Shown: positions 11,179 to 20,312, counted from the first letter of the stretch. The stretch is 49,627 nt of DNA from a bacterium (GCA_041497675.1 JBGQGY010000011.1:1-49627); one strand, 5' to 3'. A program made the numbers and translations. The notes: generated by a model from the sequence alone, not told the origin.

Positions 11179-11889
11179 ATGCGTACCCTCATCGTGATGC
11201 CGCTGTTCAATGAGCGCCCGACCGTGGCGCGCGTGCTGGGCGAAGTGCGCCGCGCGGCCCCCGACGCGGATATGCTGGTGGTGGACGATGGCTCGACCGA
11301 CGGGTCATCCGAGATCATCAAGCGGGAGGCGGGCGTTATCGTGATCAGTCATCGTGAGAATCAAGGCTACGGACAGTCGCTCATCGATGGCTTCTCATAT
11401 GCGATCGAGAACAGTTATGAGGCGGTCGTCACCATCGACTGCGACGAGCAACACGAGCCGCGGCAGATCCCAGATTTTCTCGACGCGCTGCGGGACGCCG
11501 ACATCGTGTCGGGCAGCCGCTACCTCGATCCGAGCTCCGGCGGGGATCCTGCGCCGCCCGATCGCCGGCGTGTGAACGAAGAGATCAGCGCTACGGTGCG
11601 TGCGATCACGGGGTACCCGATCACCGATGCGTTCTGCGGTTTCAAGGCCTATCGTGGCGACGCGCTGCGCCTGATGCGGCTGACCGAGCCGTCGTATGGC
11701 ATGCCGCTCCAGGTCTGGGTGCAGGCGGCGCACTATCGCCTGCGGATCAAGGAACTGCCGACCGCGAGGATCTACAAGAACCCCGAGCGCCGGTTCTGGG
11801 GTGGTCTGGACGACGCCGAGGTCCGAAAGCGGTACTACGAAGGCGTTTTGGAGCGGGAGGTGCGGCAGTGGCTCGTGTCCTCGCCATAG
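11179..11889 (+). CDS. Glycosyltransferase family 2 (DPM1-like)
   Basis: MPLFNE, VVDDGSTDGS, NQGYG, DxD (IDCDEQH), GSRY, FCGFKAY. Confidence 0.9.
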   Translation: MRTLIVMPLFNERPTVARVLGEVRRAAPDADMLVVDDGSTDGSSEIIKREAGVIVISHRENQGYGQSLIDGFSYAIENSYEAVVTIDCDEQHEPRQIPDFLDALRDADIVSGSRYLDPSSGGDPAPPDRRRVNEEISATVRAITGYPITDAFCGFKAYRGDALRLMRLTEPSYGMPLQVWVQAAHYRLRIKELPTARIYKNPERRFWGGLDDAEVRKRYYEGVLEREVRQWLVSSP

Positions 11890-12551
11890 GCCCCCATCCC
11901 GACGATCTCGAGATCGCCATGGGCGGCACGATCGCGTTGCTCCTGTCGCAGGGGCACGAGGTCGTCATGTGCGATCTGACCAACGGCGAGCCGACGCCCA
12001 TGGGGACGCCGGAGCGGCGGGCCCGCGAAGCCGCGGAGGCCGCCCGCATCTTGAACGTGTCGCGGCGGATCACGCTCGATCTCCCGAACCGCTCGCTGGA
12101 GCCGACGCTGGAGGCCCGGCGCACAGTGGCCGAGGTCATCCGTGAGGTGCGGCCCGAGATCCTCTTCATTCCCTATTGGGTGGACGCGCACCCCGATCAC
12201 GTGGCGGCGGCCGCGTTGGGCGAGGCGGCGCGCTTCTGGGCCAAACTCACCAAGACCGACATGCGGGGCGAGCCGCACTACCCTCGACGCGTCTATCATT
12301 TCTTTAGCGATCACTACAACCTCCACATCGACCCGGCGTTCATCGTCGACATCTCGGCGCACTACGAGACCAAGATGGCCGCGATTCGCGCCTATGCCTC
12401 GCAGTTCAACGATGCGCGCGGGAACGCGTGGATCCTCGATGAGATCCGCGATTTCTGCCGCTACTTCGGTCGCCTGATCTCCCGCGAGTACGGAGAGCCC
12501 TTTGCCTGCCGCGAGGAAATTGGCATCGCGCGCTGGGATGGATTGATCTGA
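11868..12551 (+). CDS. bshB1: PIG-L/LmbE family deacetylase, BshB1-like
   Basis: GPHPDDLE, DLTNGE..GTPERRAREA, HPDH, KMAAIRAYASQF, YGEPF. Confidence 0.8.
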   Translation: MARVLAIGPHPDDLEIAMGGTIALLLSQGHEVVMCDLTNGEPTPMGTPERRAREAAEAARILNVSRRITLDLPNRSLEPTLEARRTVAEVIREVRPEILFIPYWVDAHPDHVAAAALGEAARFWAKLTKTDMRGEPHYPRRVYHFFSDHYNLHIDPAFIVDISAHYETKMAAIRAYASQFNDARGNAWILDEIRDFCRYFGRLISREYGEPFACREEIGIARWDGLI

Positions 12552-14149
12552 TGGGTCCGGCCCGCGGCGCGATCGAATGGCCCGAGTTCGAACTGGAGAT
12601 CCCGACCGCGTCGCCGTCGGCGGTCGAAGCCCCACCGTACGCGTCGTGGCTTGATCTGGCGCGGCGCAATCAGGCGGCGCTCGATGCGGCGGACGTGCAG
12701 ATCGGCGGTGTGCGTCTGGTCGATCTGCGGCGGCGCGCCCGCGCAGAAGCCCTGACGCTCGCGGCCGCCTACACCCGCGCGCTGGGCGTCGAGGTGGCGC
12801 CGGGACGCAGTGATCTCCTCCTGTGTACCGGTCACCAGCCGGTGCTGGTCCATCCCGGCATCTGGATCAAGTACCTGGCGATGGCGCGTCTGGTGCCGGC
12901 CGGGGGCGTCGGGCTAAACCTCATCGTCGACAGCGACGCGCTCGAAGAGGTGGCGGCGGATGTGCCGCGGAGCAACGGCCGGCTGAGCCGTGCCCGTGTA
13001 CCCCTGGCCGCCACCGGGACCGACGTGCCGGCCGAGGCGGTACCGGCGCCGTCGCACGAGCAGTGGGGCGCGTTTATCGCCGCAATCGACGCGCATCTCG
13101 CGACGTTGAGCGAGCCAGCGGTCACCGAGGCCTGGGGGCGGGCACGAACCCTGCTCGCGCCGCCGGCGCACCTGGGGCTGCCGGGCGCCCTGACCGCGGT
13201 CCGTCGCGCGCTCGAAGGCCCCAGACCGTATTTGGATCTGCCGGTGTCACACCTGGTGCGCAGCGGGGCCTTCCGCCAGTTCGCGCTGGCGATCTTGACC
13301 GACGCCCGGCGATTCGCCGAGGTATACAATGCCTGTCTCGCGTCCTACCGCGAACACTACGGCATCCGGACGAGCGCGCAGCCGTTCCCCGATCTGGCCG
13401 TCGACGGCGCGCGGATCGAAACGCCCTTCTGGTACGTTGCCGGCGGCCGGCGGGTGCCGCTGTCGGTTGACGTGAAGGCGGGCCGGCTGCTCGCCGACGG
13501 TGATGCGGTCGCCGCACTGCCGGCCGGTCCCAACGACCCGACGTTCGCCGCGGCGGCCATCCGGCCCCGGGCGCTCACGCTGACCGCCTACGCTCGCCTT
13601 GCGCTCGCCGATCTCTTTGTCCACGGCATCGGCGGCGGTCGCTACGACCGTGCGACCGACGCCATCGTGCGGGTGTTCTTCGGCATCGAGCCGCCCGCAT
13701 ACGCCACCGTGACCGCGACGCTCTTCCTCCCGTTCTCGGGTGGCGGCCGCGCCGATGAGGAACGCCGCCGCCTGCAGCGCCTGCTGCTCGACCTGCAGCA
13801 CAATCCCGATCGGTTCTTGCCCGCCGATGGGCCACACCACGAGCTCGTGAAGGAAAAGTGGGCGTTGATCCGGCGTCTGGACGAGGCCTCGAGCATGACC
13901 CGACGCGAGCGGCGGCAGGCCACCCAGCGGATTCGCGAGATCAATCTGATCCTGCAGGTGGCGGTGGTCGGTCAGGTCGCAGACGTGCAAGAAGCGATGC
14001 GGGCGATCGACGCGCGGCACCAGGACGCTGAGGCCACGGACTATCGTGGATATCCATTTCTCCTCTTTCCGGCCACGGCCGTCGATGGATTGGTCGATCT
14101 GCTGGCCGGCCGGCCTGTTGCGGTGCACCCGGATCGCGTGCGGGGGTGA
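12551..14149 (+). CDS. Uncharacterised protein, possibly divergent BshC-like ligase
   Basis: TGATG-coupled to deacetylase; TGHQP...HPGIWIK and DLFVHGIGGGRYD motifs; C-terminal coiled-coil-like region. Confidence 0.7.
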   Translation: MGPARGAIEWPEFELEIPTASPSAVEAPPYASWLDLARRNQAALDAADVQIGGVRLVDLRRRARAEALTLAAAYTRALGVEVAPGRSDLLLCTGHQPVLVHPGIWIKYLAMARLVPAGGVGLNLIVDSDALEEVAADVPRSNGRLSRARVPLAATGTDVPAEAVPAPSHEQWGAFIAAIDAHLATLSEPAVTEAWGRARTLLAPPAHLGLPGALTAVRRALEGPRPYLDLPVSHLVRSGAFRQFALAILTDARRFAEVYNACLASYREHYGIRTSAQPFPDLAVDGARIETPFWYVAGGRRVPLSVDVKAGRLLADGDAVAALPAGPNDPTFAAAAIRPRALTLTAYARLALADLFVHGIGGGRYDRATDAIVRVFFGIEPPAYATVTATLFLPFSGGGRADEERRRLQRLLLDLQHNPDRFLPADGPHHELVKEKWALIRRLDEASSMTRRERRQATQRIREINLILQVAVVGQVADVQEAMRAIDARHQDAEATDYRGYPFLLFPATAVDGLVDLLAGRPVAVHPDRVRG

Positions 14150-14209
14150 GCCCCGCGCGGGGCCGGGAGGAGTTGCCCGGAGCGCGTGGAAACGATACTC
14201 CCGTCGAGT

Positions 14210-15145
14210 ATGAAGAACGTCCGCCTGCGCGCTCTTGCCGCCCGGCTTGTTCCCTCGCTCGTTGTCGTCGTGCTCGTCGCCACCGGTTGCCAGCCAACCG
14301 TGCAGGTGCGGGGCGATGTCACGAGCCCGGGGGCCGGGTTTGTCCAGGCGCCGCCGCCGACCGCGTTGGTGCCGACGAACCCGCGCCCATCGGCGGTGCG
14401 GGGTCGTATGGTCTTCGAGCGCATCTGTTTCGCCTGCCACGGCAACGAGGGCATGGGGGACGGCCCCGCGGCGGCCGTCCTCACCGCACCGCACAAGGAT
14501 CCCATGGTCGACTTCTTCGCGATGCTGGGCATGCACCTGACCGGCGAGAAGTTGCCCAGCCGGCCGGCCAACTTCCACAACGTGATCGCCATGCGGCTGA
14601 ACGCGCCGTTTGCGCTGTTTGAAACGATCAAGCTGGGACGGCCGCACACCGCGATGCCCGCCTTTGGGGACAAGCCGGCCTACGGTGCGAACCGCGGCAG
14701 CCCGTCGCTGAAGGACAACGAGATCTGGGACGCCCTGTTCTACGCGTGGAGCTTCTCGACGACGCCGCAGACCATCGCGCTCGCGAAAGACATTTACAGC
14801 ACGCGGGCCATCGACCTCGACGAGCGGGCCGCCAAGGCGTACGGCCGTAAGTCTGCGACCTGCGCCGACTGCCACGGGACCGAGGGCAATGGGCGCGGCG
14901 GGGCGCTGTCCGCGCAGATGGGGGCCAGGGTGTGGGGGTGGGCGCAGGGGGTGGGGCCCGGGGTCTTCACCGATCACAACCTGCTGGCCCAACGCAAGCC
15001 GGCCGAACTCTTTCAACGTATCGCCGACGGGCACGGGTTGATGCCGCCGTACCGGAGCAAACTCAAGGAAGACGAGATCTGGGCGTTGGTCGACCTCGTG
15101 CGGGCGTTCATGTACGATTGGGCGCCTGCCAGGGGCCAGCGATGA
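14210..15145 (+). CDS. Dihaem c-type cytochrome lipoprotein
   Basis: Lipobox-like VATGC; two CxxCH (CFACH, CADCH), each followed by a distal Met motif (AMPAF, LMPPY). Confidence 0.9.
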   Translation: MKNVRLRALAARLVPSLVVVVLVATGCQPTVQVRGDVTSPGAGFVQAPPPTALVPTNPRPSAVRGRMVFERICFACHGNEGMGDGPAAAVLTAPHKDPMVDFFAMLGMHLTGEKLPSRPANFHNVIAMRLNAPFALFETIKLGRPHTAMPAFGDKPAYGANRGSPSLKDNEIWDALFYAWSFSTTPQTIALAKDIYSTRAIDLDERAAKAYGRKSATCADCHGTEGNGRGGALSAQMGARVWGWAQGVGPGVFTDHNLLAQRKPAELFQRIADGHGLMPPYRSKLKEDEIWALVDLVRAFMYDWAPARGQR

Positions 15146-15205
15146 TGTCCTGGGCCGGACTTCCCCTGTGGTGGCGGGCTGTGTATTCTGGACTGGGGAT
15201 GATGC

Positions 15206-15874
15206 ATGTCGAAGGATAACAAGACCGTCGATCGACGGCGGTTTCTCAAGATCGCAGCCGGTCTCCCGATCACGGCCGGGCTTGTGGCATTTGGATCGCC
15301 GCTGCTGCGGTTCCTCAAGCCCAACGTCGATCCATTCGCCCTGATCACGCCGACCGCGCGCGATGCGCCGACCGGCGAGCCCGTCGTAGCGGCCACGATG
15401 GCAGAACTCAAGAATCCCTGGGATTTCAAGTATTTCGTCTACACACAGAAGTACCCGCAGTACACGCCCGATGGCTTCAAGACCGCCGCCGTGCCCGGCG
15501 TGGTTATCCGACTGCCGAACAAGATCACGATGCCGTGGGACTGGGTGAAGAAGTCGTTCAACGAGACCCCAAAGGTAATCGAGACGGACATCATTGCGTT
15601 CTCGCGGATCTGCCCGCACCTGGGGTGCATCTACAACTTCGTCCGAGACTGGAAGGAAGTCACCGCCGGATACGGCGGCTACGTCCCGCCCCAGCCACGG
15701 CAGCACGCGCTCATGGCGTGCCCGTGCCACCTGAGCATCTATGACCCCGCGGACCCGGCGATGCCCGGTCGTGTGGTGTCCGGACCGGCCCCGCGACCCC
15801 CGCGGACGTTCTTTTACACCGTCGAAGGGGACCGCATCCTGGCGAAGTTCGTCGAACCCGGCGGGATTGCCTGA
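15206..15874 (+). CDS. Rieske [2Fe-2S] subunit of cytochrome bc complex, Tat signal
   Basis: DRRRFLK twin-arginine motif plus TM anchor; CPHLGC and CPCH boxes; GPAPRP. Confidence 0.93.
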   Translation: MSKDNKTVDRRRFLKIAAGLPITAGLVAFGSPLLRFLKPNVDPFALITPTARDAPTGEPVVAATMAELKNPWDFKYFVYTQKYPQYTPDGFKTAAVPGVVIRLPNKITMPWDWVKKSFNETPKVIETDIIAFSRICPHLGCIYNFVRDWKEVTAGYGGYVPPQPRQHALMACPCHLSIYDPADPAMPGRVVSGPAPRPPRTFFYTVEGDRILAKFVEPGGIA

Positions 15875-17034
15875 TGGCCGATCCGATGGGCGCCCTGCGC
15901 GAGTGGTACCGCGACCGGCGCGGGCGTCTCGACTTGTTCGACGAGACGATGGTGACGAAGCAGGACAACCCGTTCTTCTTACTCGGGCCAATGCTGTACT
16001 ACTTCTGGCTCGTGACCGTCGTCACCGGGGTCGTGCTGATGTTCTGGTACGAGCCGACGCCGATCGGCGCCTACAGTTCTATCCTTCATATCCAGCACGA
16101 GGTGCCGCTGGGCTGGTTGACCCGGGGCATGCACAAGTACGCGGCCGATGGCCTGATTATCTGTATTATCTTGCGCATCTACCGTCAGTACTTCCTCGGC
16201 GAATACAAGAAGCCGGGGGAACTGACCTGGATATGGTCGTTTCTCGGGCTGGTGCTCGCGATGATCTCGGGGATCACCGGCTACCTGCTGATCTGGAACC
16301 AGCGAGCATTCTGGGCCGCCAAGACGGTGCTGACGGTGCCGGTGTACTTCGACGAACTCACCGCCAAAATTCCGGTCATCGGCGAGCAGTTTCAGGTTGG
16401 GTCGATGATTGCCTATCTCTTCCTGGGCGGGCCGGCGGTCGGCGCGGCGACGCTCACGCGGTTCTACGCCCTGCACTTCGGCATCTCGCTCGTGCTGCTG
16501 ATCGTGATGGAACTGTTCGTCTATCGGACGCGGCGCGTGCGGCTGAACATGTCGCTGGTGCCCGTGGTCGTGTTTACGGCGATGCTGGTCTTGATCAGCT
16601 GGGCGCTCCCCGCCGAGCTCGGTCGCCGGGCCGACCCGAACCGCACGCCACTGCCGATCCTCTCGGACTGGTACTTCCTGGGTCTCTACCAGTACGTCAA
16701 GTACACACCGCCGTTGTGGGCAGGGTTGGGCCCCGGACTGCTCATCGGGTTTGGCATGATGGCGCCGTTCCTCGACCGGAGCAAGGGGCGCCGGCCGCTC
16801 GAGCGCCCGTTCTTCTTCGTCGCGGGGCTGCTGTCGCTGACGTACTGGATCGCGTTTACGATCCTGATCCTCTTCAACATCGCCGTCATCGAGCGTGAGC
16901 CGCCCATGGTGTTGTTGACGACGGCCATCGTGCTGGGTTTGGCGTTTATTTGGGAGATTAGCTACCGCCGGCGGCAGGCGCGGGCTCCGGCGTTGCCACC
17001 ACCGCCGAAGGCCGCAGCCCACGCGCACAGCTGA
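15874..17034 (+). CDS. Cytochrome b paralogue 1 (only bL-haem histidines retained)
   Basis: RGMHKYAAD (H87), TRFYALH (H201), GYLLIWNQRAFWA, SDWY in the PEWY position; multiple TM helices. Confidence 0.9.
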   Translation: MADPMGALREWYRDRRGRLDLFDETMVTKQDNPFFLLGPMLYYFWLVTVVTGVVLMFWYEPTPIGAYSSILHIQHEVPLGWLTRGMHKYAADGLIICIILRIYRQYFLGEYKKPGELTWIWSFLGLVLAMISGITGYLLIWNQRAFWAAKTVLTVPVYFDELTAKIPVIGEQFQVGSMIAYLFLGGPAVGAATLTRFYALHFGISLVLLIVMELFVYRTRRVRLNMSLVPVVVFTAMLVLISWALPAELGRRADPNRTPLPILSDWYFLGLYQYVKYTPPLWAGLGPGLLIGFGMMAPFLDRSKGRRPLERPFFFVAGLLSLTYWIAFTILILFNIAVIEREPPMVLLTTAIVLGLAFIWEISYRRRQARAPALPPPPKAAAHAHS

Positions 17035-17035
17035 G

Positions 17036-17317
17036 ATGCGAACACTGGCGTCGTGGGGCGCGTTTATCGTGGCGGTGGCGGCGTTTTCGCGGTTGTGGCA
17101 AGGTGTGCGTGCCGCGCTGGATGGCGACCATCTGTACGGGCCGCTGGAAGCGCTGGGGTGGATGGCGCTGTTCCTCAGCGCCATGGGGTACCTCGCCTTC
17201 GTGATCTATGCCGCCGACCGCGCATCCGGGCGAGCGACGCGCAGGATCCGTTTCTTTGACCGGGTGCTTGACCGCGCGCATCAGACGGCGCCGCGTAGAG
17301 CGGCGGGCGGCCTATGA
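17036..17317 (+). CDS. Small membrane protein (2 predicted TM)
   Basis: Starts 1 nt after cyt b stop; two hydrophobic segments; ATGA-coupled to next gene. Confidence 0.7.
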   Translation: MRTLASWGAFIVAVAAFSRLWQGVRAALDGDHLYGPLEALGWMALFLSAMGYLAFVIYAADRASGRATRRIRFFDRVLDRAHQTAPRRAAGGL

Positions 17318-17583
17318 ACGGTGGGAACAGTCATCAGTACATGATCGGCATCTTCGCATTGTCGCTGCTGGGCGTGACCTGCGCCGGGTTGATCCTGTTT
17401 GGCGAGCGGTTTGGGAGCACCGAGCACCGCGACCTGTGGCAGTTGGGTGGCGCTGCGCTTGGGGCGATCCTCGTCATCTACGGTCTGATCCTGCTGCTCC
17501 TGCGTAAGTTGGCCATGATCGAGCCGCGCCGGGCCGAGGCCGAGGACGACCTACGCGGGCGCTGGACCAAACCCGTGCCATGA
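17314..17583 (+). CDS. Small membrane protein (2 predicted TM)
   Basis: ATGA overlap; two hydrophobic segments (YMIGIFALSLLGVTCAGLILF; LGAILVIYGLILLLL). Confidence 0.72.
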   Translation: MNGGNSHQYMIGIFALSLLGVTCAGLILFGERFGSTEHRDLWQLGGAALGAILVIYGLILLLLRKLAMIEPRRAEAEDDLRGRWTKPVP

Positions 17584-17598
17584 GGCAGGAGGGCTGGC

Positions 17599-18756
17599 GT
17601 GTACCGTAGAGTCTTGACCTCGCTGTTGCGGGCGACCATCCGGCTCGACGTCGCCATCAACCGCGTCTATCCTACCGACCTCAACCCGCTGTACTATACC
17701 GGCGGGCTCGCCAACCTGTTCCTGTTTGTGCTCGTGGTGTCCGGCATCTTCATCTTCTTCTATTACGTGCCCAGCCTGGCCGGCGCGCACGAGTCGATCC
17801 GTTACCTCACGGAGCAGGTGCCGTACGGCGGGCTGATCCGTGGCATCCACCGGTACGCGGCCGACGCGTTCATCATCGCCGCGCTGCTGCACCTGTTCCG
17901 CAACTGGTTTACCGACCGCTACCTGTTCTCGCGCGATTCGCCCTGGATCTCCGGGATGTTCCTGCTCTTCTTCGGCGGCGTCGTCGGCGTCACCGGATAC
18001 ATCCTCGTCTGGGATGTTCGCGGGCTGACGATCCTGGGGATCTTCAATGACCTGCTCAAGTCGATCCCGTTGATGGGGCAGTTCCTGGCCGACCTGCTCA
18101 CGGGTGGGCAGGGGCTCAGCGAGGGGACGCTGCCGAGGATCCTGCTCCTCCACGTCGGACCCGCGTCGCTGCTGTACTTCCTGTTGTGGTGGCACTACGT
18201 GCGGTTGCGGCATCCGAAGGTGTGGCCGCCGGCCACCTGGGTCATGGTGTGTCTTGGGTTGGTGACGCTGGCGTCGGCCCTGCTCCCGGCTGTCAGCAGC
18301 ACGCCGGCCGAGCCCGGCGTCCGGCCCGCGGCGATCCCGCTGGACGTCTTCTTCCTGCTGCCATTTTGGCTCGCCGGGTATGTGCCGGCGCTGGCGGTGG
18401 TGCTGCTGGTCGCGGCGTTGATTGCCGTCGGCTACGTCATCCCGTACATCGCGCGCGAGACGCCGCAAGAGATGGGTCCGCGTCACGCGGGCATCGCGCA
18501 GGTCATCGACGGCAACTGCACGGGGTGCGAGCTCTGTTACTACGATTGTCCGTACAACGCGATTGTGATGGTTGCCTCCCCATACCCCGGGCTCAGCCGG
18601 GCGGCGGCGAGCCGGAAGCTGTTGGCCGTCGTGCTCGATTCACGGTGCGTCGAGTGCGGTATCTGCATCGGCGCCTGCCCCTTTGAGGCGCTCGAGCTTC
18701 CCGGGATGTTGGAGAGCGAGATCACCCAGCGCGCGGCCGCGGCGGTGCAGGCATGA
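17599..18756 (+). CDS. Cytochrome b paralogue 2 fused to C-terminal 2[4Fe-4S] ferredoxin domain
   Basis: H84/H98 and H185/H199 pairs 14 residues apart; CTGCELCYYDCP and CVECGICIGACP; AGGAGG RBS before GTG. Confidence 0.9.
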   Translation: MYRRVLTSLLRATIRLDVAINRVYPTDLNPLYYTGGLANLFLFVLVVSGIFIFFYYVPSLAGAHESIRYLTEQVPYGGLIRGIHRYAADAFIIAALLHLFRNWFTDRYLFSRDSPWISGMFLLFFGGVVGVTGYILVWDVRGLTILGIFNDLLKSIPLMGQFLADLLTGGQGLSEGTLPRILLLHVGPASLLYFLLWWHYVRLRHPKVWPPATWVMVCLGLVTLASALLPAVSSTPAEPGVRPAAIPLDVFFLLPFWLAGYVPALAVVLLVAALIAVGYVIPYIARETPQEMGPRHAGIAQVIDGNCTGCELCYYDCPYNAIVMVASPYPGLSRAAASRKLLAVVLDSRCVECGICIGACPFEALELPGMLESEITQRAAAAVQA

Positions 18757-19217
18757 GCACGACGCCAAAGGTCGTCGGGCTCGTGTGTGATTGGGCGGTG
18801 GTCACCGCCGAGATCGCGGACGCCGCGGGTCGGCTGCGCGCCCACCCGTCGGTGACGATTATCCGCGTGCCGTGCTCGGGGTTCATCCGTCCTGCCTGGT
18901 TGGAGGACACGTTGAAGGCCGGCGCCGACGGCGTCTTCGTGGTCGGCTGCCCGTACGGCGACTGCCTCAACCGCGAGGGCAACTACCTGATGCGCGAGCG
19001 CATGGATCAACTGCAGCGGCGGCTCGCACGGCGCAAGATCCCGGCCGAACGGCTGGGGATGCTGGCCTACGGCCTGCACGACGTCGAGGCCTTCCTGGCC
19101 GAAGTGGCCGCATTTCTCAAGCGGCTTGAGGCCCTCGGCCCGCCCGCACCTCCCGGCCGCCCGGCCCGGCCTGCCCAGGCCGCGTCGCAACCCGTCCAGA
19201 CGGAGGAGGGGGCATGA
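18753..19217 (+). CDS. MvhD/FlpD-family [2Fe-2S] protein (hydrogenase iron-sulfur subunit-like)
   Basis: VGLVCDW, IIRVPCSG, GADGVFVVGCPYGDC.NREGN, IPAERL; ATGA overlap. Confidence 0.88.
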   Translation: MSTTPKVVGLVCDWAVVTAEIADAAGRLRAHPSVTIIRVPCSGFIRPAWLEDTLKAGADGVFVVGCPYGDCLNREGNYLMRERMDQLQRRLARRKIPAERLGMLAYGLHDVEAFLAEVAAFLKRLEALGPPAPPGRPARPAQAASQPVQTEEGA

Positions 19218-19318
19218 AGCGACCGCTGAGGGTCTGGCTGGCATATCTGTTTTTCTACATCCTCTTCTTCTTGATCCTCACCTTCGTGGCATCGTTCGGC
19301 CTCATTGCGGAAGCCTGA
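19214..19318 (+). CDS. 34-aa single-TM microprotein (not in ORF track)
   Basis: MKRPLRVWLAYLFFYILFFLILTFVASFGLIAEA; GGAGGAGG RBS at 19202-19209; ATGA overlap with the MvhD-like gene. Confidence 0.75.
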   Translation: MKRPLRVWLAYLFFYILFFLILTFVASFGLIAEA

Positions 19319-19334
19319 CCAGGTCGACAACTCA

Positions 19335-20312
19335 ATGCCTGCCGACCTCGAGCAGATCTACAGGCCTGTCGCGTCCGACCTGAGCGCACTGGACGCGCTG
19401 CTCCGGCGCGAGCTCGCCACCGCCGATCCGTTTATTGGCGAACTGGTCGGACACGTCCTCACGACGCGCGGGAAGCTCATCAGGCCGGCCCTGGCGCTCT
19501 TGTCGGCTCAGGCCTGCGGCGGGGCGGATGAGCAGCGGATGTGGCTGGCCGGCACGGTCGAACTCATCCATATCGCGTCGCTGATCCACGACGATGTGAT
19601 CGACGCGTCCGACCTGCGCCGGGGGATCTCGACCGTCAACGTGCTGTGGGGCAATCAAGTGGCGGTGTTGCTTGGGGACTATCTCTTCGCGACGGCCTTC
19701 GACTTGGTCAGCCGGATCCGCCACCCGGAGGTGGCGCCGACGATTGCACAGGCGGCGGTGCGCATGAGCCACGCCGAGATCACGGCTGTCAAGACCGGCG
19801 GTGAGCCTCACGAAGACGAAGACACCTATTTCTCGATCATCGACGGCAAGACGTCGGCGCTCTTTTCCGCGGCGTGCCGCGCCGGTGCGCTGATTGCCGG
19901 CGCACCGCGCGAGGCCGTCGACGCCATGGCCGAGTTCGGCCGCCAGTGGGGGATGTCGTTCCAGATCACCGATGACACGCTCGATCTCACCGGCGACCCA
20001 CAGGCGTTGGGCAAACCGATTGGGAGCGACATCGACAGCGGCAAGATTACGCTGCCCGTGATCGCCGTGCTGCGTCAGGCCGGAGACGACGACCGCCAGC
20101 GGCTGCGGGCGCTCTTGCGCGGCGCCGACCGCGAGGGCAACCTGGCTGAACTGCGGGCACTGCTTCACCGGTATGGGGGGGTACGGTACGCCCTCGACGC
20201 GGCGCGGGCGTTCGCTGATCGCGCGACCGCCGCGTTGGAGGCAATCCCGGCCTCGCAGGCGAAGGAAAGCCTGCGCGACCTGGCGGCGTTCGTGCTGGTG
20301 CGGGCCCGGTAG
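19335..20312 (+). CDS. Polyprenyl (hepta/octaprenyl-type) diphosphate synthase
   Basis: GKLIRP, HDDVID..LRRG, LLGDYL, DGKT, FQITDDTLD, GKITLP. Confidence 0.93.
   Translation: MPADLEQIYRPVASDLSALDALLRRELATADPFIGELVGHVLTTRGKLIRPALALLSAQACGGADEQRMWLAGTVELIHIASLIHDDVIDASDLRRGISTVNVLWGNQVAVLLGDYLFATAFDLVSRIRHPEVAPTIAQAAVRMSHAEITAVKTGGEPHEDEDTYFSIIDGKTSALFSAACRAGALIAGAPREAVDAMAEFGRQWGMSFQITDDTLDLTGDPQALGKPIGSDIDSGKITLPVIAVLRQAGDDDRQRLRALLRGADREGNLAELRALLHRYGGVRYALDAARAFADRATAALEAIPASQAKESLRDLAAFVLVRAR

Follow-up and report, generated by a model that had tools for sequence, protein, structure and literature searches.

A conserved Rieske/cytochrome b variant with two complementary cytochromes b and an iron-sulphur arm

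The gene cluster

A stretch of bacterial DNA of 49,627 nucleotides (GCA_041497675.1 JBGQGY010000011.1:1-49627), the whole of which is here called the window, includes at 14210-19318 eight open reading frames (ORFs), all on the + strand and with coordinates that were checked (Table 1). Together they specify a real, conserved and uncharacterised variant of the Rieske/cytochrome b complex, with two cytochromes b, b1 and b2, that have lost complementary parts. An initial annotation, made from the sequence alone, had reported eight co-oriented, partly overlapping genes, among them those for a dihaem cytochrome c, a Rieske protein, two cytochromes b, two [4Fe-4S] motifs and an MvhD-like protein; all eight were found, four junctions are overlaps of 1 or 4 bases, and Pfam and NCBIfam agree with the identities. 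It had also given each of the two small proteins, s1 and s2, two transmembrane (TM) helices. For s2 this stands, as two helices pass a simple hydropathy threshold; in s1 one does, and a second is likely.

Table 1. Genes of the cluster and their limits in the window
Product	Position	Strand	Characteristics
Dihaem class I cytochrome c lipoprotein, CcoP-like	14210..15145	+	two CxxCH, distal Met ligands, lipobox Cys
Twin-arginine (Tat)-type Rieske [2Fe-2S] protein	15206..15874	+	CPHLGC and CPCHLSIY boxes; Pfam and NCBIfam Rieske matches
Cytochrome b1	15874..17034	+	~8 TM helices; Pfam cytochrome b N and C domains
Small membrane protein s1, 93 amino acids (aa)	17036..17317	+	no Pfam match
Small protein s2, 89 aa, 2-TM	17314..17583	+	no family above cut-off
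Cytochrome b2-ferredoxin fusion	17599..18756	+	Pfam cytochrome b and 2x[4Fe-4S]
MvhD/FlpD-like [2Fe-2S] protein	18753..19217	+	PF02662, E 4.5e-29
Single-TM peptide, 34 aa, C-terminal FGLIAEA	19214..19318	+	no family above cut-off

What is expected of the Rieske/cytochrome b family is present: a Tat-type Rieske protein with both cluster boxes is encoded adjoining a cytochrome b gene, b1 has the ligands of the low-potential haem (bL) and the motif of a quinol oxidation site (Qo), and there is a gene upstream for a c-type candidate for high-potential acceptor. The Pfam domain score of the Rieske protein is slightly below cut-off; twin Arg is found in 58/59 orthologues, and of the two residues that raise the potential of such clusters Ser is present in 136/136 and Tyr in 125/136, the Ser position being Gly or Ala in the solved Thermus and 8hn2 Rieske proteins. 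The dihaem cytochrome, with an ATG start at 14210 and a GTG in the same frame at 14186, matches the Pfam families Cytochrome_CBB3 and Cytochrom_C in two stretches, its top NCBIfam matches are cbb3 subunits, and its orthologues have two CxxCH (51/51) and the lipobox Cys (49/51). It is the predicted high-potential acceptor downstream of the Rieske protein.

Occurrence and ancestry

How widespread is this gene set? Its nearest named relatives are of Candidatus Sysuimicrobiota (CSP1-3), with b2 identity of up to ~80%. Genomes provided 78 loci, 68 of Sysuimicrobiota type, 8 Melainabacteria-like (37-39%) and 2 of Bacteroidota, and a search of metagenomes, made with a distant b1 alignment, contributed another 80, namely the 80 best among 256 confirmed ones, whose gene order is the same as far as the contigs extend; of the MvhD profile used in that scan only the true-domain part was counted, the N-terminal reading frames being spurious. 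The 159 loci in all have near-full b1 in 142, near-full b2 in 133 and both in 117, and it is to these sets that the counts below refer. Because the loci are related, with clustering at 80% identity leaving 29 b1 and 36 b2 sequences, counts of the 117/117 type are not counts of independent events. Conserved synteny was something on which the initial annotation had beforehand made its reading depend, and gene order is retained in relatives down to ~37% b2 identity, so the operon is not a matter of chance; chance or artefactual ORFs are ruled out by the family matches together with this synteny.

A class-level search, which replaced a phylum-wide sample of Cyanobacteriota (3/301), detected b1 in 136 of 251 Vampirovibrionia genomes. 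One cluster bears the label Holophagaceae. Two loci titled Gammaproteobacteria (L068, L076) and one titled Firmicutes (L039) have operons that group with those of Vampirovibrionia or Sysuimicrobiota, and the genomes of L068 and L076 occur in the class-level set of L073; these three taxon titles are probably mislabels.

A quickly made tree with 97 rows, 62 of them core and 35 taken at random from 107 canonical ones, with long branches and an untested root, sets canonical cytochromes b apart from b1, b2 and a group of fusions (Shimodaira-Hasegawa-like approximate likelihood ratio test, SH-aLRT, 97). The fusions, which are of Bacteroidota and are sister to b2 (SH-aLRT 99), join cytochrome b, ferredoxin and MvhD in one protein with a further membrane segment (L077:6378-11884, L078:6422-11857). 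The fusion was found in 1/33 genomes of its family, so that its neighbourhood is known from two loci. Broad congruence is seen between the b1 and b2 subtrees, and rooting in the canonical group would imply an ancient b1/b2 duplication. Four proteins of a deeper sister group (P0256, P0260, P0261, P0264) are cytochromes b that lack the site of the high-potential haem (bH), with Arg at the helix-B ligand and PDWY or ADWY as motif.

Two cytochromes b with complementary losses

Ligand positions were fixed by alignment to solved cytochrome b6 and by direct alignment of b1 with b2; the two are 31% identical, align without gaps from helix D through the Qo motif, and have their ligand positions in register. 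In b1 the Qo motifs WNQRAFW and SDWY are accompanied by the bL pair H87 and H201, with R101 and F215 at the bH sites, just as the initial annotation had it. SDWY is present in 142/142 and the bL His pair in 117/117, and R101 is without exception among the best 120 listed homologues. The prediction that b1 orthologues would likewise be without the helix-B bH His is borne out by all 117 loci with both genes, the residue there being Arg (115) or Lys (2). As the helix-D bH site is sometimes still His (1/142 loci, and 5/14 distant b1-like proteins), it is the helix-B ligand whose loss is universal. E213 is also invariant (142/142), and the resulting Arg-Glu pair may occupy the vacant bH pocket. Three residues before the helix-D bL ligand of b1 there is an aromatic in 140/142; an aromatic at that position has a role in electron transfer within the dimer. 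That b1 is a decaying pseudogene is ruled out by the intact gene and its strong conservation.

The losses in b2 are of the other kind. All four His (H84, H98, H185, H199) are present, without exception among the best 120 listed homologues and in 117/117 loci, and the two [4Fe-4S] motifs that had been noted alongside them are confirmed by alignment and Pfam. The claim that b2 is without a PEWY-like motif does not hold in that form: the position reads LDVF here and has 21 variants across orthologues, with the acid retained in 131/133 and Trp in 64/133, so that the Qo site is degenerate rather than deleted. As to the site of quinone reduction (Qi), Asp or Glu at the start of helix E is found in 0/133, a [KRD][DE] test for Qi gives 0/133 for b2 vs 67/108 for canonical rows, and no Cys for haem cn was found in the orthologue alignment. 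The D-E loop is very short, as had been claimed: the helix-D bH position and the Qo acid are a median of 50 residues apart in b1, b2 and the Bacteroidota fusions vs 73 in 111 other cytochrome b rows. A canonical Qi is missing from b2. A basic stretch follows its bH ligand, with R202 and P206 in 133/133 and His205 in 104/133.

The split, b1 without the helix-B bH His and b2 with four His, is seen in 117/117 loci, and in none of these is there the single cytochrome b with four His and Qo motif of a canonical quinone (Q) cycle complex; the helix-E acid, full D-E loop or haem cn Cys of such a complex is not found either. Mean conservation has the same complementarity: 0.83-0.87 for b1 vs 0.55-0.60 for b2 in the Qo-forming segments cd1, cd2 and ef, and 0.69-0.76 for b2 vs 0.58-0.63 for b1 in the bH-side segments.

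The iron-sulphur arm

The b2 model and hydropathy give six TM helices (A-F) before the iron-sulphur (Fe-S) domain which, with standard cytochrome b topology, would put that domain on the cytoplasmic side. The fold of the model is that of bc1 cytochrome b (7q21_B, VIA-align Z 25.8, root-mean-square deviation 3.3, 275 aligned), while the Fe-S domain is predicted at low pLDDT (predicted local distance difference test); no solved cytochrome b with a fused ferredoxin was listed in fold searches with the model, in which confidence in the Fe-S part was low. In the MvhD-like protein Cys 12, 41, 66 and 71 align to Cys of solved MvhD (5odc_D), and are retained in 73, 72, 73 and 73 of 73. The b2 tail and the MvhD-like protein match HdrA2 positions 571-773, its C-terminal ferredoxin and MvhD part.

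A probable heterodimer

On Q-cycle logic, a homodimer of b1 would leave the second electron from quinol without an exit. It is because of this, and because b2 is without a conserved Qo, that a heterodimer is proposed. Papers are cited here and below for the passages covered. Engineered Rhodobacter bc1 heterodimers, in which one half is without bH and the other without Qo, grow by means of bL-bL transfer (PMC4152375). Structure prediction of b1 with b2, with three haems and one cluster, gave a score of 0.38, the best of three controls scoring 0.00; contacts shared among runs were at least 52% and partner pLDDT at least 74. The mark used was reached by 116/157 solved pairs and 2/215 mismatched ones; 18/157 solved pairs, and both mismatches, reached it with 0.60 or less, and resemblance to solved bc1 dimers may account for the pass. 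The modelling backs the heterodimer of the initial annotation weakly, and it is mainly on the sequence pattern that we consider it probable that b1 and b2 form one. Upstream of the Rieske gene of one locus there is an extra Rieske-like ORF without cluster ligands (L141:8573-9268); it might serve as a dummy for that half of a dimer which is without Qo.

Linkage to oxidases and physiology of the hosts

About 70 of 80 Sysuimicrobiota genomes have an operon-type MvhD match, judged by score band and position. Exactly two weak cytochrome b matches were obtained in 30 Sysuimicrobiota genomes, of which 15 list both ~1.6-1.8 kb apart; with such closeness, the pair is often the sole Rieske/cytochrome b candidate of its genome. 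One genus of 7 genomes has neither a heme-copper oxidase match nor operon-type matches, and in the 3/3 checked the operon is deleted between intact flanks on one contig, a single evolutionary event. A fragmented genome, G017, has the operon and no oxidase match. G010 had seemed to carry an oxidase but not the operon, and was ruled out as such a case: its assembly has a gap there, and a contig starts with the MvhD end and the peptide. In Vampirovibrionia the operon sits 3′ of ccoN, ccoO and a ccoS-like gene, and b1 and oxidase occur together in 135 genomes, b1 only in 1, oxidase only in 6 and neither in 109, a co-occurrence due mostly to the linkage. Taken together, the frequency with which the pair is the sole one and its deletion in the oxidase-less genus mean that these bacteria have in the operon the genes of their aerobic complex III.

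The genome from which the window comes has one A-type oxidase, unlinked to the operon, whose subunit II is without CxxCH. Genes for menaquinone are present as far as can be judged from matches, menB being above cut-off and adjoining a UbiA-family gene; the futalosine pathway was not found in this genome. It has two candidates for soluble ferredoxins. A second set of complex I-like genes, homologues of NuoD, H, I and L on small contigs (G000:C27, C191, C219), is possibly a complex I that does without NuoEFG.

A possible electron path and its rivals

Where would the electrons go? We propose that menaquinol is oxidised solely at the b1 Qo of a b1/b2 heterodimer. The first electron would pass to the high-potential Rieske cluster, the dihaem cytochrome c and a heme-copper oxidase, and the second from bL of b1 to bL and bH of b2, through the two [4Fe-4S] clusters to the [2Fe-2S] of MvhD and on to a soluble carrier in the cytoplasm, for which ferredoxin or flavodoxin is the likeliest candidate. 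The exported electron would then re-enter the quinone pool via complex I, or serve the demand for NAD(P)H, the Q-cycle thereby being closed outside the complex. That the heterodimer bifurcates menaquinol in this way, its low-potential electron being exported to a carrier which is probably a ferredoxin re-oxidised by complex I, is the reading favoured here, if with slightly more doubt than trust. A stronger form, in which an obligate heterodimeric complex III makes reduced ferredoxin by quinone bifurcation for a ferredoxin-dependent, NuoEF-less complex I, and in Sysuimicrobiota and the non-photosynthetic Vampirovibrionia is the principal complex III for aerobic life, seems to us doubtful.

Export through an arm of HdrA type has precedent in direction, as electrons there run from [4Fe-4S] to MvhD [2Fe-2S] and a flavin partner (PMC12350162). 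For the acceptor, an HdrA-type partner of MvhD had been hinted at. It does not survive the search: the HdrA core was not found in the window's own genome, nor in 40 b1-bearing Vampirovibrionia genomes hand-picked out of 136, where HdrA2 matches are confined to the C-terminal ferredoxin/MvhD part. With the core not found and a single FlpD-family match in the own genome, namely the operon's MvhD-like gene, HdrA or Mvh hydrogenase is ruled out as partner. A NAD module of NuoF/Hox type is rejected as a universal partner, NuoF being in 0/40 of these Vampirovibrionia; the own genome has two such genes. NuoD-family genes are in 38/40, a count that includes any group 4 hydrogenases, which are of the same family and were not separated. 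These three results, for HdrA core, NuoF and NuoD, make ferredoxin the simplest common acceptor, and complex I of Melainabacteria is reported to be without NuoEFG (PMC6349859). Rieske proteins with Ser and Tyr in anammox bacteria have potentials of +303 and +335 mV, and NAD(P)H formation from menaquinol has been proposed there (bioRxiv 2025.06.25.661457).

Several considerations weigh against the export of electrons to ferredoxin. One is energy. The bookkeeping was done at midpoints, with +300 mV for Rieske and -70 mV for menaquinone, the midpoint of ferredoxin being -410 mV; it leaves reduction of NAD+ favourable by +120 mV and of ferredoxin by +30 mV. With one charge moved across 150 mV the balances fall to -30 mV and -120 mV, so ferredoxin could be reduced only with the high-potential chain oxidised or the proton-motive force low, and the feasibility of its reduction against that force is marginal. 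The own genome has a complete NuoEFG complex I, and a second, canonical four-His PEWY Rieske/cytochrome b complex (G000:C90:970-7949, its operon also specifying a molybdopterin enzyme and a multihaem cytochrome). In the related loci compared, the b1/b2 operon is not accompanied by any constant acceptor gene. The prediction of the b1+b2 complex is weak (0.38), and the loci, with 29 b1 and 36 b2 sequences at 80% identity, are related rather than independent. Finally, in the two Bacteroidota loci a fusion of b2 type is found with no match to Rieske or b1 within the locus, which means that b2 can work alone.

The tightness of the energy balance keeps internal quinone reduction by b2 as a rival. 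The same heterodimer would then run a Q-cycle, with b2 reducing menaquinone at a non-canonical site on the N-side and the Fe-S arm helping, either by storing the first electron or by supplying the second from ferredoxin, in the manner supposed for haem cn and ferredoxin in b6f. That haem has been discussed as a ferredoxin-fed electron store, and the engineered, cross-inactivated bc1 dimers perform a full Q-cycle (PMC5600118 and PMC4152375, respectively); there is no thermodynamic strain, the conserved basic stretch after the b2 bH ligand is at hand, and the operon has no dedicated acceptor gene. On the other hand, the D-E segment is short by ~23 residues, the start of helix E is without acid, there is no cn Cys, His205 is substituted in 29/133 including rows of Vampirovibrionia type, and three clusters that end in a docking protein make a long wire if buffering is all it does, all of which leaves internal quinone reduction unlikely, if a serious contender. 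Might b1 and b2 instead be separate devices, b1 with Rieske and cytochrome c oxidising quinol linearly and b2-ferredoxin-MvhD being an independent transmembrane wire, for instance from ferredoxin to the quinone pool or as source of reductant for oxidase assembly? The weak complex prediction would fit, as would the stand-alone Bacteroidota fusions, 3′ of a heme-copper oxidase and SCO and with 190 relatives found. However, those fusions retain FDWY or FDWF (10/10) while the b2 that is paired with b1 shows its 21 variants, as expected if paired b2 has surrendered its own quinone site. The constancy of the b1 bL pair, the broad congruence of the subtrees and the joint loss of the genes also speak for a joint function, and independent working of the two is in our judgement quite improbable.

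Could the complex run in reverse, with reduced ferredoxin and reduced cytochrome c together reducing menaquinone at Qo, driven by proton-motive force? Such confurcation is downhill in the bookkeeping once that force is included, and CO dehydrogenase is reported in all CSP1-3 metagenome-assembled genomes and hydrogenases in many (PMC11962464). It would, though, consume proton-motive force in genomes which bear an oxidase and in many of which this is the sole cytochrome b pair, and the operon is shared with a cbb3 oxidase in Vampirovibrionia and lost together with the oxidase elsewhere. Oxidase linkage, joint loss and sole presence point to forward flow to oxygen, and we regard reverse operation as very improbable.

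Relation to known systems

With bc1 and b6f complexes there is likeness in the gene order of Rieske, cytochrome b and c-type cytochrome, in the cytochrome b fold, and in the xDWY-type Qo of b1. Unlike them, the present cluster has two unequal cytochrome b genes, whose products would have three b-haem sites to a pair where bc1 and b6f have four; Qi acid and cn Cys are missing, the D-E segment is short, and there is a putative cytoplasmic Fe-S arm.

Close in architecture to b2 with the adjacent MvhD gene is the PDWF-FeS clade, described as cytochrome b to which 4Fe-4S and MvhD domains are joined (Kao and Hunte 2014, PMC4122944), which is subfamily H, of unknown function, of Dibrova et al. 2017 (PMC5600118), where Turneriella and Magnetospirillum entries fall in clade H of Fig. 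S1. The four-His cytochrome b, 4Fe-4S and MvhD module of that group are all found here. However, in PDWF-FeS/subfamily H proteins the domains are fused into one chain and the Qo-like motif is intact, with no bH-less partner described, and b2 does not have the PDWF/PDWY motif, reading LDVF here, with xDWF in 48/133 and Pro at first position in none. The tree behind the placement of b2 left out the named Magnetospirillum and Turneriella sequences, for which the Bacteroidota fusions stood in.

Melainabacteria are known to have a complex III-IV operon, which specifies a C-family oxygen reductase along with a pair of cytochrome bc proteins (bioRxiv 531145). It is the operon described here, its genes being ccoN, ccoO, a ccoS-like gene, and those for dihaem cytochrome c, Rieske, b1, two small proteins, b2-ferredoxin, MvhD and the peptide, whereas the oxidase of the window's own genome is the unlinked A-type enzyme. 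The primary paper is said to be that of Soo et al. in 2017. The passages covered of bioRxiv 531145 and PMC6349859 speak of two cytochrome bc or b6f-like subunits, and not of haem loss, Fe-S arm or heterodimer.

Anammox complexes (Kuste4569-74, Kustd1480-85) share the proposed bifurcation of quinol into a cytoplasmic Fe-S chain, menaquinone, and a high-potential Ser/Tyr Rieske. As modelled in the source passages they are homodimers, with a four-His b6-like cytochrome b that has haem cN, and they include an NAD(P) oxidoreductase subunit of their own; for the present cluster a heterodimer is proposed, the operon has no flavoprotein, and no NAD(P) oxidoreductase subunit was found in the window or the inspected loci, so that the cluster is not of anammox type. 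The engineered Rhodobacter bc1 (H212N in one half, G158W in the other), functional in vivo, has the same pattern of loss, but such dimers are laboratory mutants with a normal Qi while the b1/b2 pair is natural and its path would end in Fe-S clusters. The HdrA arm of Hdr-Mvh/Fdh/Elp complexes is matched in its C-terminal ferredoxin and MvhD by the b2 tail and MvhD; unlike in Hdr-Mvh or Flx-Hdr, the HdrA flavin core was not found, in the genomes searched, as a partner of MvhD, and the arm is grafted on a membrane cytochrome. Cytochromes b without bH are known in cyanobacterial subfamily K, Pyrobaculum and Planctopirus (PMC5600118, PMC4122944), but they differ from b1 in clade and in residue (Q/E/K). 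Kao and Hunte discarded any cytochrome b without one of the four His (PMC4122944). A row of the H-R-H-x SDWY kind is not in parts 1-2 of 3 of the Fig. S1 leaf list of PMC5600118, and SDWY has no match in the searched supplements of PMC4122944 and PMC5600118. The parts are thus known, and no description of the complementary pair was found in the literature searched, outside which were Dibrova 2013, Soo 2017, ten Brink 2013 and one supplement of PMC4122944.

The relevance in nature of bL-bL transfer between the halves of bc dimers has so far been argued from engineered mutants. The b1/b2 pair looks like such an engineered knockout pattern fixed by evolution, and is open to direct test. If export to a carrier is true, ordinary aerobes would have a quinone-bifurcating source of low-potential reductant of a kind proposed so far only for anammox and, if a NuoEF-less complex I re-oxidises the ferredoxin, the Q-cycle would be closed via a second proton pump and low-potential reductant obtained without flavin bifurcation. 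The respiratory chain of a phylum abundant in soil and hot springs, and of the non-photosynthetic sisters of Cyanobacteria, would be reinterpreted; existing annotation treats the genes for b1 and b2 as those of b6f subunits, and they have figured in debate over how aerobic respiration arose (PMC6349859).

Small subunits and neighbouring genes

Both s1 and s2 are probable supernumerary subunits, and in related loci the place of s1 is taken by a homologue or by an ORF of equal size. The 34-aa peptide reads as a genuine conserved subunit: a short ORF with its motif is present in 78 loci, and the FGLIAEA-type tail is a C-terminal extension of b1 in P0245, P0248, P0255 and L084. Directly 3′ of the peptide in L029:11637-13139, L041:7577-8989, L024:2829-4280 and 16 more loci of Sysuimicrobiota type there is a CcoN-like gene, without all three of the metal-binding His motifs of Vampirovibrionia CcoN and followed by genes for a CcoO-like protein and a cytochrome c; it is apparently a catalytically dead homologue of cbb3 oxidase.

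In most Sysuimicrobiota loci a polyprenyl diphosphate synthase gene, here at 19305-20312 of the window, lies 3′ of the operon, and its product possibly makes the quinone side chain. On the other side, at 12551-14149, is a gene for a 532-aa protein without Pfam or NCBIfam match. Close relatives (L003:1457-6725) have a cytochrome c maturation block between this gene and that for the cytochrome c, a block which is not at the corresponding spot here (14149-14210). The 532-aa gene comes after those for a GT2 glycosyltransferase and a PIG-L deacetylase (11179-12551); the trio is kept in relatives and is reminiscent of a thiol pathway of bacillithiol type.

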